Positions 3,812 through 47,316 of a DNA stretch of 48,021 bases are shown one piece after another (positions within the stretch are counted from its first letter, which is position 1; the number at the start of each line of letters is the position of its first letter). The position numbers were made by a program, and so were the translations under genes. The stretch lies in sequence record PQ900155.1. One strand, 5' to 3'. The notes below the pieces were generated by a model. That model saw only the letters and a list, made by a program, of their open reading frames with translations, did no database searches and was not told where the DNA came from. Origin of the DNA: Escherichia phage vB_Eco_CWW26.

Positions 3812-4419
3812 TAATCCTCCAGCTTCACGCCGGGAATTTTACCGGCTGCGATGGCGTCGTAGATATGTTTAGCAATGTGCTTGATTTGCTCATTATTGTT
3901 GCTAATTAACTGACTAGCTTTTCCTATCTCGGAAATAGTCTCATCACGCTTGCGCTCTGCTTCGGTGCGGAGTGGGCGGAATCCGCAAACATTACCAACA
4001 AAAAATGGCTGACTTCCGTCAGATGGTTTAAGGCATGCACCATCGCCATCATAAACAAGGACAGTTACTGGAAGCCAATCATGGTCGCCGCTTGCTAGCC
4101 ACTCACACTCGACACCAACCGGCGGAAGACCTTCTCCGTTCCATGCTGGCTTTTGAGATTCGGCTAGTGCTGCTTTGTATTGCCAATAGGTCACTATCGA
4201 CTCCTTGTGGTCGTAAGATAAAGGCATGACCCATTCACCACACCAGAAATACATAAGGCTATTCCCTGTGTGATGTTTCCATGATAATCCATCATAGTGG
4301 GGATCATTCGTGTCCCATACACACAGGGAACCGTCATTATCTTGAGTAATTGACAGCGCACCCTCCGGCCAACCGCCACGCTTTGGTAATTCCTGACACA
4401 ATAGTTCAAGTAATGTCAT
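3811..4419 (-). CDS. hypothetical protein (202 aa)
   Basis: ORF track; second gene of a leftward cassette driven by the promoter at 4646-4674; 4-bp overlap with upstream gene. Confidence 0.5.
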   Translation of the reverse strand: MTLLELLCQELPKRGGWPEGALSITQDNDGSLCVWDTNDPHYDGLSWKHHTGNSLMYFWCGEWVMPLSYDHKESIVTYWQYKAALAESQKPAWNGEGLPPVGVECEWLASGDHDWLPVTVLVYDGDGACLKPSDGSQPFFVGNVCGFRPLRTEAERKRDETISEIGKASQLISNNNEQIKHIAKHIYDAIAAGKIPGVKLED

Positions 4420-5462: not shown

Positions 5463-5742
5463 TACCGTCGACCACTTTGTACCATTGCTCTTTAATATTA
5501 TCCAGTCGTGCTATATGTCTGGTAATTTGAGTTTCAAGATGAGCATGTGCACCCAGTAAACTACCAAATAACACCCATTTATCTTTGTGCATGTGAATGT
5601 GGACACCTGCGTTTTTACCAGTTCTGACGAAATCATATGAATTTTTATAGCTTCTATTCACATATCCTACAATGATTTCCGCTTGTGATATCTCATCGAT
5701 ATTTATTGGTAACGCAAATCTTATCTCTATCTCTTGCGTCAT
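5452..5742 (-). CDS. hypothetical protein (96 aa)
   Basis: ORF track; last gene of a leftward cassette; His-rich segment GVHIHMH...GAHAHLE. Confidence 0.4.
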   Translation of the reverse strand: MTQEIEIRFALPINIDEISQAEIIVGYVNRSYKNSYDFVRTGKNAGVHIHMHKDKWVLFGSLLGAHAHLETQITRHIARLDNIKEQWYKVVDGIIA

Positions 5743-5852
5743 TATTTACCCTTCCACGTTTCAATTAAACTTTCAATACCCAGGAACAGTAAGTAGCCAA
5801 ATACCAACGTTCCGAACCAGTGGTCAGCAATGAAGTTGAGTACGTCAATCAT
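5742..5852 (-). CDS. small membrane protein (36 aa, putative)
   Basis: MIDVLNFIADHWFGTLVFGYLLFLGIESLIETWKGK; one hydrophobic helix; ATGA overlap with upstream gene. Confidence 0.3.
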   Translation of the reverse strand: MIDVLNFIADHWFGTLVFGYLLFLGIESLIETWKGK

Positions 5853-6037: not shown

Positions 6038-6234
6038 TAGCCCAACACCTTATTAACAAGTTGGTCCATCGCGGTCCATCGCTTAGATGCCGAACCATCC
6101 TCTTTAGTCGCGGTGAATGTCACAATATCCTCGAGGAAGTTCATTTTAAAGTTTGTCACAGTGATAACACCGTCTGCATCAATAATCCGGTCATTGTTGC
6201 GGAGCATTACCGCTTTAATTGGTTTATAGTTCAT
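6037..6234 (-). CDS. hypothetical protein (65 aa)
   Basis: ORF track; translationally coupled within the leftward cassette. Confidence 0.4.
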   Translation of the reverse strand: MNYKPIKAVMLRNNDRIIDADGVITVTNFKMNFLEDIVTFTATKEDGSASKRWTAMDQLVNKVLG

Positions 6235-6380
6235 TTTCCATACGCCTCACGTAATGCAGCATTAGCGAGCGCCCAATCATCATGCTTGCGCGCAAGCTGC
6301 TGTGCGGTCTGTAACAGTTCTTTATCAATGACCCGCGCCTCTGATACGGGGCGGTCGTAGCCAGGAAGTAATGTGTTCAT
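6231..6380 (-). CDS. hypothetical protein (49 aa)
   Basis: Hand-translated MNTLLPGYDRPVSEARVIDKELLQTAQQLARKHDDWALANAALREAYGK; GAGAGGG SD; stop overlaps next ATG; about 45 bp downstream of the promoter. Confidence 0.35.
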   Translation of the reverse strand: MNTLLPGYDRPVSEARVIDKELLQTAQQLARKHDDWALANAALREAYGK

Positions 6381-35854: not shown

Positions 35855-37030
35855 CTATTTTCGGGAAAATACATTTTTAATTGCACGTTCATCGACCTGT
35901 TCCAGCTTGACACCTGTCACAGGTGTTTCGGAGTACTGCTCAATAATGGACGGGTCGATACCTTTTTTGACACACTGTGCGGGTGTGTCCAGTTCCTGCG
36001 GCTTACGAAGATTCTGACCGAGTAAATCCCCCATCATAATCACCTGGTCAACCGGAACATCTTTCTTCCAGCGCTTACGACCGTATGTGGTTTTGGCGCT
36101 ATAGAATGTCACGTGTTGCCCCTGCTTAATCTCGTGCAGTGCCTGTTCCTCCAGACCACTGAGACGCATTTTAATCATCTCCTGAGCACGCTGCAGGAGT
36201 CGCAATTCAACACCCAGGGCATGACCGGACAGGTTGTGCGTCTGTAACGACTGCACGTAGTCCACACCGGCATAACTTTGTTGCTTCAGCGTGTCACAGT
36301 GTGCGCGTGCGCTACAGTCGAGACAGTGTGGCCCCGGCGTACACATCGGCGCGGTGTCCAGCACGCGGGGCATCGTCTCGTTCACCTGCTGCCGGTATAC
36401 ACACAGTTCATCGTATGTGAGCGCCCATTTGCGTACCGTACCGTCACTGGTGAATCCGCGAGGCTGCACGATGACCAGTTCAATAACGTCCGGCGGCGTC
36501 TGGAATTGCTCACAAATACTGAACGCTTCAATCAATAGCTGCCAGTTTTCAAACGGGTCAACAATGCGATGACCGAATTTAGCGTCCCAGACACGTAGTA
36601 CCTTTTCTTCCGGTACGTACACCCACGCGTCAGGAATACAGTACCAGTCGCCGTAACCCGGGACGGGACACGCTTCCTCAACGTGAAGTCCCTGAGTGCA
36701 GTCATGACTGTTACAGTAACCCCACACCTCGTTAAAATACTCACGAGCGGCGTCAAACAGTTCATCCGTGATAACAATTCCATCCTTTGACAGACTGCCC
36801 ACCAGTTCACCAAACGGCTCATTACGGAACAGTTTCTGAGCCACTTCGTGACATGCCCGGCCCTCTAGCCGGGATTGTGACGGTTCGACGTCCAGTGGTG
36901 GATAAGCCTGCTGCGCACGGAACGACCCGTTACAGTTCATCCACGTACCAGCGTCGGATACTTTGGGTAAATTAGTCATGTTTACTCCAACCCATCCATT
37001 ACGACCAGACGCAATCCCGCAATTAGGCAA
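35855..37030 (-). CDS. Cas4-like PD-(D/E)xK nuclease (DUF2800-like) with C-terminal Cys cluster
   Basis: Cys cluster CTPGPHCLDCSARAHC near the C-terminus; adjacency to the SSB-like gene. Confidence 0.45.
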   Translation of the reverse strand: MPNCGIASGRNGWVGVNMTNLPKVSDAGTWMNCNGSFRAQQAYPPLDVEPSQSRLEGRACHEVAQKLFRNEPFGELVGSLSKDGIVITDELFDAAREYFNEVWGYCNSHDCTQGLHVEEACPVPGYGDWYCIPDAWVYVPEEKVLRVWDAKFGHRIVDPFENWQLLIEAFSICEQFQTPPDVIELVIVQPRGFTSDGTVRKWALTYDELCVYRQQVNETMPRVLDTAPMCTPGPHCLDCSARAHCDTLKQQSYAGVDYVQSLQTHNLSGHALGVELRLLQRAQEMIKMRLSGLEEQALHEIKQGQHVTFYSAKTTYGRKRWKKDVPVDQVIMMGDLLGQNLRKPQELDTPAQCVKKGIDPSIIEQYSETPVTGVKLEQVDERAIKNVFSRK

Positions 37031-37311
37031 TTATCACCGTATGCAAAATTTGCGGTATGTGGTGATTTAGCCATCACACTGGTGTCAGAAACCCATTCAA
37101 AATCGATTCCCTGTTTTTCGATGATTTCCATACCAATACCATAAGCGTTAGAAGGGCAAAACGGTTGCCAGTGGTCTTGCTCATTTCTTACGAATAAACA
37201 ATCACCGTGATGTTCCCGAATTATGAAACCATTCACTTGTTCACCCGGTTTGAAAATCTTGTAATTTAGTTTCAGCGCTTTTGCGACATTTAAGTCTAGT
37301 TCTTTGTCCAT
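36982..37311 (-). CDS. hypothetical protein (109 aa)
   Basis: ATG at 37311 (MDKELDL) within ORF-track frame; overlaps the downstream gene start. Confidence 0.4.
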   Translation of the reverse strand: MDKELDLNVAKALKLNYKIFKPGEQVNGFIIREHHGDCLFVRNEQDHWQPFCPSNAYGIGMEIIEKQGIDFEWVSDTSVMAKSPHTANFAYGDNCLIAGLRLVVMDGLE

Positions 37312-37315
37312 TGTC

Positions 37316-38350
37316 TCACTCCCCCAAATGCGCTTTAACACGTGCCACAAACGGACCGATTTTATCCGGGTGGGCGTTCAGTTCCTGCACCGACGACATA
37401 CCGTCCTGCGCCAGCAGCGTGTTCACCGTTGCCACATCAATCTTACCGTGACGCTCGGTCAGGAAGGTCATGAGGCGTGGGAAGTCCCAGTCGGTTACTT
37501 CCGGTACAGGCGGTGCAACAACTACCGGCGGCGGTACAGGTTTCTCGTATGCAGGAGCACCACCGTGACCATTTTCACACGTTACGCCGCTGGGCGATGA
37601 AAATTGAGGTTTCATGCACACTGAACACAGGTCACCAGTTTCAGGATGTGTCACTTCCGATTTCCAGTCATCAGTAGGAGGCGGCACAGGAAGTGGCGGA
37701 ATACCTGCAACGGTCTGCTCGGTTACCACGCCAGCGTCAGTGTGGAAGTCATCGGCCGGAGGTGTTACCGATGGTTCAGGAGTGACGCAAATATGTGGAG
37801 TTCCGTGATGGTCACAACCTTCATCAATGCACAATTCTTCACCGGATGGTGTCACCGGTACAGGTTCTTGAGGGAAACGTAATTCATCCTGTACTCGCTG
37901 AATAGTTGCCGCCCACTGCTCCTCATCCATGCCCTTCGGCTTACGACGCAGACGCCACGTACCGTCCGCATTAAGCGCCTTACTGGTGGAGTGGATACGC
38001 TCGTCCCACGGTGTACCGGTTGAGTCGGTAGTGGGTGGGTCGATATCCGGTTTAACTGGTACGCACAATTCAACCATTTCGCGAGTTACTTCAATACTTC
38101 TCCCGTCACGGGGAGCCAGCGACTCAACCTGTTGAGCAGTCGTGTCGACTTCCGGCTCATCCATCATTTGTGGCGCGGATTGTTGCAGTAATTCAGTGCT
38201 GATAACCAATGGGGTTACGGTCACATCGACTGGGTGACCATCTTTTTTGCTGGCAATTTCGATAAGCGCTTTACCGAATTGAAGCAATGCGATGGTATCG
38301 TCGTTCGGGATGGTTAAAGTGATAAGGTTGGTCATTGTTCTACGCTCCAT
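37316..38350 (-). CDS. modular Pro-rich zinc-binding replication-module protein
   Basis: 344 aa; Cys/His clusters CIDEGCDHHGTPHIC and CSVCMK...CENGHGG; contains GTPWDERIH also found in the polymerase C-terminus. Confidence 0.5.
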   Translation of the reverse strand: MERRTMTNLITLTIPNDDTIALLQFGKALIEIASKKDGHPVDVTVTPLVISTELLQQSAPQMMDEPEVDTTAQQVESLAPRDGRSIEVTREMVELCVPVKPDIDPPTTDSTGTPWDERIHSTSKALNADGTWRLRRKPKGMDEEQWAATIQRVQDELRFPQEPVPVTPSGEELCIDEGCDHHGTPHICVTPEPSVTPPADDFHTDAGVVTEQTVAGIPPLPVPPPTDDWKSEVTHPETGDLCSVCMKPQFSSPSGVTCENGHGGAPAYEKPVPPPVVVAPPVPEVTDWDFPRLMTFLTERHGKIDVATVNTLLAQDGMSSVQELNAHPDKIGPFVARVKAHLGE

Positions 38351-38622
38351 AATAAAGTTTCTTCAATCACTTCGAATTCGATTTCATCAACGTAACCGGT
38401 TTCCCAGTCTGTACCGACATTTAAGTTGCATTTCCACTTGTAAACGCCGGGAATTTTATCTTCTACCTCAAACGGTAAACCGATTTCCTCAGCGTTGCCG
38501 GGGTCAAGCAAGCTGTAATGAATGTTGGGGGTTTTAAGAATTGTAACTGTGCCCCATTTATCAACCGCCACGATCCACTCGGACCCGTTGGGTGAGTCGT
38601 ATTGTTCATCATTTTCTTGCAT
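38332..38622 (-). CDS. small highly acidic protein (96 aa)
   Basis: About 21 Asp/Glu versus about 5 Lys/Arg; ATG at 38622 with GGAGGA SD; first gene after the promoter. Confidence 0.45.
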   Translation of the reverse strand: MQENDEQYDSPNGSEWIVAVDKWGTVTILKTPNIHYSLLDPGNAEEIGLPFEVEDKIPGVYKWKCNLNVGTDWETGYVDEIEFEVIEETLLWSVEQ

Positions 38623-38654
38623 CTCTCTGTCCTCCATTGTTGTCGATGTGGTGA

Positions 38655-38683
38655 ACTCTATATCACCATGACGCAACCGTCAA
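38655..38683 (-). promoter_or_regulatory. sigma70-like promoter, palindromic -35 (leftward)
   Basis: Minus strand TTGACG-gttgcgtcatggtgata-TAGAGT; + strand palindrome ATGACGCAACCGTCAA 38668-38683. Confidence 0.5.
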
Positions 38684-38697
38684 CACTAATTTTAAAT

Positions 38698-38726
38698 TTG
38701 ACACGGGGTGGGTGGTGCGACATAAT
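38698..38726 (+). promoter_or_regulatory. sigma70-like promoter (rightward)
   Basis: TTGACA-cggggtgggtggtgcga-CATAAT (17-bp spacer), about 35 bp upstream of ATG 38761. Confidence 0.55.
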
Positions 38727-38760
38727 GACGCCATCGTCAATAGTTGAGAGGAAGTGAGAG

Positions 38761-44804: not shown

Positions 44805-44912
44805 ATGAGCAAGAAAACACAATTTTCAGTAAGCAACTACCATAACGAGCACGTCATGCGCTGGCACTGGCAGAAACTCAAAGAGCGCTACCTGGCAACG
44901 CAGGGTAAATAA
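44805..44912 (+). CDS. hypothetical small protein (35 aa)
   Basis: Hand-translated MSKKTQFSVSNYHNEHVMRWHWQKLKERYLATQGK; GAGAGGTGA SD; followed by hairpin GCGCCAC-CGAA-GTGGCGC. Confidence 0.35.
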   Translation: MSKKTQFSVSNYHNEHVMRWHWQKLKERYLATQGK

Positions 44913-47111: not shown

Positions 47112-47138
47112 AGGCCCGCATTTAGCGGGCTTTGTTTT
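47112..47138. terminator. bidirectional rho-independent terminator
   Basis: GCCCGC-ATTTA-GCGGGC followed by TTTGTTTT; T-rich on the minus side too; between convergent genes. Confidence 0.7.
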
Positions 47139-47316
47139 ATCCAAGTGGAAATTTTTTATCAATCCATTCGTTCATCCTAATTCTCAATCTCTTCACGGAG
47201 TAACTCCAGTCATCGGCCTTATTTAGTATCGACTCAACAACTAAAATAATAATGAATACAGGTAGTACGATTATCCTTCCTGTGAGACTTTTCTTACTCA
47301 TCTTGTGCCATTGCAT
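47137..47316 (-). CDS. small membrane protein (59 aa, putative)
   Basis: ATG at 47316 (MQWHKMSKK...) with GGAAGA SD; TM IIVLPVFIIILVVESIL; within ORF-track frame 47137..47484. Confidence 0.35.
   Translation of the reverse strand: MQWHKMSKKSLTGRIIVLPVFIIILVVESILNKADDWSYSVKRLRIRMNEWIDKKFPLG

Follow-up and report, generated by a model that had tools for sequence, protein, structure and literature searches.

Gp69 of Escherichia phage ZCEC13 is a mobile acidic protein of the DUF8046 family and a plausible polyanionic decoy

T7 Ocr (gp0.3) blocks type I restriction-modification (R-M) and bacteriophage exclusion (BREX) systems as a decoy, and its structure is established as all-helical. Ugi, phi29 p56, T4 Arn, and T7 gp5.9 comprise 50–100 amino acids (aa) with a net charge of about -10 or more negative, and some of them present their carboxylates via the edge or face of a β-sheet. 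DNA mimics account for 11 of the 268 catalogued anti-defence proteins and are structurally diverse (10.1101/2025.06.06.658234). SPO1 Gp46, a phage protein with an isoelectric point (pI) of 4.3, and the bacterial Neisseria DMP12 are small acidic proteins with diffuse negative surfaces that bind HU, and the negative surface blocks the DNA site of the nucleoid protein without strict copying of B-DNA (PMC8892312). Here, we analyzed a DNA stretch of 48,021 bp, the sequence record PQ900155.1 of Escherichia phage vB_Eco_CWW26, which is referred to in full as the window. It is 100% identical, with equal coordinates, to the complete genome of Escherichia phage ZCEC13 (ON086804.1 / NC_071140.1, genus Jedunavirus), in which the open reading frame (ORF) 38332..38622 on the minus strand is named PQZ67_gp69 (YP_010684640.1, ‘hypothetical protein’) by RefSeq. 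An earlier sequence-only reading had proposed this gene, hereafter gp69, as a DNA-mimic candidate. We find that gp69 is a member of a phage protein family that is acidic throughout and moves as a single-gene cassette, and we tentatively suggest that it may act as a polyanionic decoy.

The translation of gp69 (MQENDEQYDS...LLWSVEQ) comprises 96 aa with a mass of 11.0 kDa. It contains 7 Asp and 14 Glu against 5 Lys and 0 Arg, that is, 21 acidic residues (21.9%), a net charge of -16, and a pI of about 4.05. The sequence-only reading had counted roughly 21 Asp/Glu versus 5 Lys/Arg, and our recount gives the same figures, all five basic residues being Lys. In its six frames the window contains 139 ATG-started ORFs of 60 aa or more; of these, the gp69 frame, scored as its 101-aa ATG-extended form, shows the highest acidic fraction and the joint-lowest pI. 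In composition, gp69 therefore bears the hallmarks of DNA mimics, being small, rich in Asp and Glu, and low in pI. The copies of gp69 in ZCEC13 and Klebsiella phage IME346 differ at 20 nucleotides, about 13 of the differences being synonymous, and the ratio of nonsynonymous to synonymous substitution rates (dN/dS) is 0.12; because of this low ratio, gp69 is a genuine gene under purifying selection. The position assigned to it earlier also holds: our consensus scan finds a promoter-like site at exactly 38683-38655 with no ORF between it and gp69. It is likewise fair to call gp69 the first gene of the leftward replication operon, since the same-strand genes 3' of it comprise gp68, a NinX-like gene, a DUF2800/PD-(D/E)XK exonuclease gene, another exonuclease gene, and a DNA polymerase gene. 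The gene is probably expressed early.

As for family membership, gp69 matches phrog_4953 over residues 2–95 with an E-value of 1.5e-34. Its homologues in a collection of 5.8 billion proteins all bear the precomputed label PF26219, the name used in both UniRef and BFVD is DUF8046, and the top BFVD match of gp69 is the DUF8046 protein of IME346. A Pfam scan of gp69 returned no match up to an E-value of 1 because the Pfam copy scanned does not hold the PF26219 model; the NCBIfam and PADLOC scans returned no match either. Searching 1.84 billion cluster representatives with HMMER recovered 115 clusters only, nearly all of them stand-alone proteins of 90–160 aa. DUF8046 is a small phage family, found only in virulent phages, whose hosts are almost all Enterobacterales. 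It is thus already catalogued, as DUF8046 and as PHROG 4953, with gp69 as a member without reported function; the literature searched contains no mention of DUF8046, PF26219, phrog_4953, or the locus tags of six homologues, and names ZCEC13 in passing only. Fused domains were considered as a functional hint and discarded, the longer homologues bearing only unknown PHROGs, DUF551, or a weak zinc ribbon, and a 1722-aa match is noise that falls inside a fibronectin-III repeat region. One homologue, P0169 (189 aa), is a natural fusion of DUF8046 (residues ~13–106) and DUF551 (residues 126–182), the latter being a phage domain of unknown function that occurs twice as a stand-alone protein in ZCEC13 (gp16 and gp38).

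The acidity of gp69 extends to its relatives. Across 121 homologues, the net charge has a median of -19, and the core domain of 76 members sharing less than 85% identity carries a net charge of -9 to -18. Thirteen core positions are acidic in at least 60% of members (D9, D21, D40, E45, E52, E54, D55, D72, E74, D79, E82, E84, and E87), and D9, D21, D40, E45, E74, and D79 are among the core positions that are acidic in at least 90%. The N-terminal extensions of the homologues, with a median length of about 26 aa, are 28% acidic. Acidity is a position-specific property kept across the whole DUF8046 family. The strictly invariant residues, namely P50, G59, Y61, W63, C65, and F83, are hydrophobic or structural, and further conservation is seen at W16 (aromatic) and H35 (the one conserved His), C65 being the one conserved Cys. 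The alignment of the 76 members, read together with the secondary structure predicted by AlphaFold2, shows no sign of a catalytic constellation among the conserved residues.

The AlphaFold2 model of gp69, built with the family alignment, is confident and reaches a predicted local distance difference test score (pLDDT) of 92.5 and a predicted template modelling score (pTM) of 0.81. The predicted structure consists of a compact β-rich domain of about 85 residues with two β-hairpins, preceded by a short acidic tail. Specifically, a disordered acidic N-terminus is followed by the hairpin β1-β2 (residues 14–30), a loop of 28 residues that includes a short helix, and the long hairpin β3-β4 (residues 59–93). 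On strand 3, Y61, W63, and C65 occupy alternate positions, and its partner, strand 4, holds F83; because of this strand periodicity, the four residues probably line the hydrophobic core. The outward positions 80, 82, 84, 86, and 88 of strand 4 are acidic in 42–80% of members, most clearly at 82 and 84, and by canonical β-strand geometry these acidic side chains would lie about 6.5–7 Å apart. In the predicted structure, a stable scaffold presents a polyanionic surface that is conserved in the family.

The comparison with Ocr and ArdA that the sequence-only reading had suggested was carried out: neither protein resembles gp69 in sequence or fold, and no other DNA mimic of solved structure does. 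The sequence results and the structure matches listed do not include Ocr, ArdA, Arn, Ugi, p56, gp5.9, Gam, or DMP12/19. No Ocr chain in the PDB was recovered by phmmer or profile search at E-values up to 10, and the predicted β-rich fold of gp69 is not the all-helical banana-shaped dimer of Ocr. For ArdA, neither homology nor the three-domain elongated fold was matched in the Pfam, PDB, or structure searches. Membership of gp69 in the Ocr or ArdA families is therefore rejected. The matches of the gp69 model to solved structures all lie below significance. Designed ‘Pizza’ β-propellers and PknD NHL blades, which were weak matches and the only ones in the PDB sequence searches, were rejected as homologues as well: they reach an E-value of 5.6e-4 over the whole chain, with no single stretch significant, because the strand motif WIVAVD..G.V.VL fits six repeated blades.

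Next, we examined the distribution of the gene. By tblastn it is found in 275 GenBank phage records, whose stated hosts are almost all Enterobacterales. The jedunavirus carriers ZCEC13, IME346, and P5026 share 95–100% identity, while the other carriers, at 42–60% identity, are large virulent myoviruses, including Slopekvirus (KP15, KP27), RB16-like and related T4-like phages, certreviruses (CR3, CR8, CB7, phiTE), phapecoctaviruses (with a 156-aa form), and Serratia phage Kashira. A search of 72,556 plasmids recovered no copy of DUF8046, and a pattern scan of 185,579 representative genomes recovered none either. Of 72 jedunavirus-type records, defined as those matching the surrounding 2.4 kb, only ZCEC13, IME346, and P5026 hold the gene at the gp69 position. 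As shown by a DNA alignment of four phages, KpV52 and SBP possess a nearly identical promoter, 5' untranslated region, and ribosome-binding site, followed directly by the gp68 homologue, and in ZCEC13 and IME346 a 288-bp ORF is inserted between the ribosome-binding site and gp68. The GGAGG site of gp69 accordingly serves the gp68 homologue in the phages without gp69, in which gp68 is the conserved first gene of the operon, and the ATGA overlap between gp69 and gp68 forms the downstream border of the inserted cassette.

The DUF8046 gene occupies at least five unrelated genomic contexts. In locus L013 (IMGVR_UViG_3300042115_000016), from a more distant jedunavirus relative whose portal protein is 71% identical to that of ZCEC13, it lies at 3897-4285, antisense between the genes of the terminase large subunit and the portal, which are direct neighbours in ZCEC13; it stands there as a unit of one gene, preceded by a promoter of its own that is of the TTGACG-N4-CGTCA type, TTGACGAGCCCGTCA...TATGCT. 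About 14 loci of T4-like phages (Slopekvirus, RB16-like, and others) have it between gp41 and gp61, immediately 5' of an orphan N6-adenine methyltransferase gene. In certreviruses the gene that immediately follows it encodes an ATP-dependent DNA ligase, and phapecoctaviruses have it within a run of small hypothetical genes. No neighbour gene is common to all carrier lineages. In short, gp69 is a self-contained accessory cassette that moves between slots, and from these many unrelated contexts it follows that its function is independent of particular neighbours. As to the methyltransferase beside the gene in the T4-like loci (for KP27, L004 3453-4557), it has an NPPF motif and weak Pfam matches to MTS and N6_Mtase. 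Its annotated start in KP27 overlaps the DUF8046 gene by 65 nt, and in L025 a gap of about 20 nt separates the two genes, so that the KP27 start may be mis-called.

Taken together, composition, conservation, gene mobility, and precedent are the grounds on which we consider it plausible, and hold tentatively, that gp69 is a polyanionic decoy that blocks a nucleic-acid-binding protein of the host. Family-wide acidity and an accessory cassette suit a host-directed or anti-defence protein. According to this model, gp69 would act stoichiometrically, soon after infection, as a nucleic-acid-mimicking decoy for a protein of an Enterobacterales host, and would block this target by binding to the basic surface with which it contacts nucleic acid. 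The target may be an enzyme of DNA-targeting defence or a protein of the nucleoid, of repair, or of transcription. Both the mechanism and the host target are inferred. The family data lend some further weight to the mimic idea of the sequence-only reading, which is plausible but unproven. It is distinctly doubtful that DUF8046 goes as far as a new structural class of nucleic-acid mimic, namely a β-rich acidic protein carried as a single-gene cassette by virulent phages of Klebsiella, Escherichia, Enterobacter, and Cronobacter, which would neutralise DNA-targeting defences (R-M, BREX, or similar) or an Enterobacterales nucleoid protein.

Several observations weigh against the decoy proposal. 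Besides the missing similarity of sequence or structure to known mimics, there are many small acidic phage proteins that do not mimic DNA, and for this reason the prior for mimicry from composition alone is low. Promoter proximity is seen in two independent jedunavirus-type contexts; outside jedunavirus-type phages, the DUF8046 gene is not promoter-proximal, as seen in KP27 and CR3-type phages. ArdA-type mimics are common on plasmids and conjugative elements, from which DUF8046 is absent in the plasmid set searched. Moreover, PF26219, DUF8046, Jedunavirus, and Slopekvirus do not appear in the EVADES supplements with their 268 anti-defence proteins, motif searches in the supplements of two accessory-gene screens found no DUF8046 homologue, and the empty PADLOC scan points in the same direction. 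The R-M sensitivity data of the BASEL collection (Vequintavirinae and relatives) are not applicable here, the phages tested being rV5-like and phi92-like.

The alternative that survives best, although we rate it as rather unlikely, is that gp69 inhibits or hijacks a host factor without nucleic-acid-binding activity, for example a protease, a toxin-antitoxin or abortive-infection toxin, or a cell-division or metabolic protein. Its acidity would then be there to keep it soluble or to complement a basic patch, and not for DNA mimicry. The accessory, mobile, early-gene signature also fits this explanation, and the well-folded domain with its conserved loop (PNIH, EE-GLP) may offer a specific interface; however, the conserved charge is scattered over the domain, with -9 to -18 on the core, and such a pattern resembles an overall polyanionic surface more closely than one interface.

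An accessory factor of the phage's own replication, recombination, or repair, which would chaperone or regulate a basic DNA-handling protein (ligase, helicase, SSB, or exonuclease), is unlikely. The replication operon around gp69 and the ligase gene of certreviruses may invite such a role, but gp69 is dispensable in most jedunaviruses, which have equal replication genes, and the gene also resides between terminase and portal and in small hypothetical arrays away from annotated replication genes. The lack of a neighbour common across lineages and the subsignificant structural matches count against it as well.

The narrower claim of the sequence-only reading, an Ocr/ArdA-like anti-restriction mimic directed against type I R-M and possibly BREX, appears quite improbable. 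It draws on the small size, the acidity, and the place of gp69 as first gene behind the promoter, and its sole specific support is the linkage in the roughly 14 T4-like loci, an orphan N6-adenine methyltransferase gene being a typical anti-restriction gene. This linkage is confined to one syntenic lineage, though, and gp69 lacks homology or fold likeness to Ocr and ArdA, with a predicted β-rich fold against the all-helical one of Ocr. The absence of DUF8046 from plasmids also disfavours the claim, as does the fact that ZCEC13 already has an Stp-like peptide with a possible role against type Ic systems. Finally, a small enzyme or a small-molecule or metal ‘sponge’, sequestering an immune signalling nucleotide via aromatics or divalent cations via carboxylates, is very improbable: the sponges Tad and Acb2 are similar in size to gp69, and the family conserves aromatics (W16, Y61, W63, F83), one His (H35), one Cys (C65), and many carboxylates, but the conserved aromatics and C65 face the hydrophobic core by strand periodicity, no solved sponge or enzyme matches the fold, and a net charge of -16 disfavours anionic nucleotides.

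The features around gp69 are compiled in Table 1. The record of Klebsiella phage KpV52 annotates the equivalent of the 38683-38655 site as a promoter, and the sequence of this leftward promoter is near-invariant across four jedunaviruses (ZCEC13, IME346, KpV52, and SBP). The ATGA overlap suggests translational coupling between gp69 and gp68.

Table 1 Features of the gp69 locus and exact copies of the palindrome in the window.
Feature	Coordinates	Strand	Basis and remarks
gp69 coding sequence, DUF8046 / PHROG 4953, 96 aa, acidic	38332..38622	-	TGA stop included; composition, profile match, dN/dS, AlphaFold2
gp69 ribosome-binding site GGAGG	38631..38635	-	8 nt 5' of the ATG at 38622; sequence and alignment
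Sigma-70-like leftward promoter	38655..38683	-	-35 TTGACG 38683-38678, 17-nt spacer, -10 TAGAGT 38660-38655; consensus scan, 9/12 matches
Palindrome TGACG-N4-CGTCA over -35 and spacer	38669..38682	.	One of 10 exact genome copies
Divergent rightward promoter TTGACA-17-CATAAT, then second TGACG-N4-CGTCA palindrome (38726-38739)	38698..38739	+	11/12 matches; consensus scan, motif search
ATGA overlap, gp69 stop TGA / gp68 start ATG	38332..38335	-	Sequence, annotation, alignment
gp68, 339 aa, PHROG 11133, Cys-rich, acidic	37316..38335	-	Context only, no functional partnership implied
TGACG-N4-CGTCA exact copies	4660, 6427, 7719, 14839, 18823, 35837, 38669, 38726, 40775, 44747		Motif search

The palindrome over the gp69 promoter belongs to a genome-wide set. 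TGACG-N4-CGTCA has 17 matches in the window (10 exact and 7 with one mismatch) versus 2.3 expected, and none of 100 shuffles reaches 17. About nine of the ten exact palindromes, including that of the gp69 promoter, form a promoter family TTGACG-N4-CGTCA-N7-TA(T/G)A(G/C)T where the direction of transcription switches. The copy at 38726 lies just 3' of the -10 element of the divergent rightward promoter in an operator-like position. The motif also occurs in the jedunavirus-type loci L006, L010, and L013 and is absent from other phage types. The palindrome may be the site of a phage regulator, for which gp78 and gp86 are candidates, or a bidirectional -35 element.

Further observations concern the neighbouring genes. 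The longest ORF of gp68 (37316-38350) opens at 38350, and its annotated start at 38335 is backed by the alignment with KpV52 and SBP (MSNITLTIPND against MTNLITLTIPND). The gp68 protein has a pI of about 4.65, is proline-rich, and contains two Cys/His clusters that resemble zinc ribbons. The 29-aa gp70 (38668-38757, plus strand), which overlaps both the divergent promoters and the palindromes, is unlikely to be a gene. A second variable slot, at 36982-37311 on the minus strand, lies between gp68 and the DUF2800 exonuclease gene, with equivalents in L002, L003, and L006; it holds the NinX-like gene in ZCEC13, an HNH endonuclease gene in KpV52 and SBP, and an N-acetyltransferase gene plus a small ORF in IME346.

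Elsewhere in the window, gp81 (44805-44912, plus strand) encodes the 35-aa peptide MSKKTQFSVSNYHNEHVMRWHWQKLKERYLATQGK, which matches PF08133, the anticodon nuclease activator family that includes T4 Stp, with an E-value of 3.3e-5 and 24.2 bits against a gathering score of 25. The peptide shares the core SN[FY]HNEHVM with T4 Stp, and gp81 may act against type Ic restriction (EcoprrI) and activate PrrC. RefSeq gives implausible names to tiny coding sequences (e.g., 5742-5852, 6231-6380, 47137-47316), among them a 36-aa ‘NADH-ubiquinone oxidoreductase chain 3’, a 49-aa ‘glycosyltransferase’, and a 59-aa ‘R-M system S subunit’ with a long hydrophobic stretch. The Rfam and tRNA scans of the window found nothing.

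As the evidence stands, gp69 is an ordinary uncharacterised accessory gene of suggestive composition. If the decoy proposal is true, the phage DNA mimics and anti-defence proteins on record, a short list, would gain a new fold. At least 275 sequenced phages would have a function assigned to one of their genes; many of them are Klebsiella or E. coli therapy candidates, in which host-range determinants matter. The question is easily testable, since nature provides pairs of phages that differ in the presence of the cassette, with ZCEC13, IME346, and P5026 on the one side and KpV52 and SBP on the other.

Among described proteins, the closest to gp69 are the other DUF8046 members, including IME346 gp70 (95% identical), KP27_036, phAPEC8_00131, and Pectobacterium phage CB7_236, which are homologous over the whole 85-residue core with E-values of 1e-17 to 1e-54. 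They share with gp69 the predicted fold (Foldseek TM, template modelling score, 0.87–0.95 to the BFVD models), the acidity, and the motifs SPNGS-WIVAVD, PNIH, and GVY-W-C. In contrast to most of them, gp69 lacks the acidic N-terminal extension of 10–60 residues and is among the shortest members, and its promoter-proximal slot in the replication operon is common to just two other phages. T7 Ocr and ArdA resemble gp69 in being small and strongly acidic, and the concept behind both is that of a stoichiometric decoy aimed at DNA-binding enzymes of defence; Ocr is, in addition, the first gene transcribed after entry in T7, which may be compared with the promoter-proximal position of gp69. Although Gp46 and DMP12 share neither homology nor a fold match with gp69, their mechanism, a diffuse negative surface that covers the DNA site of a nucleoid protein, is of the kind that we propose for gp69.

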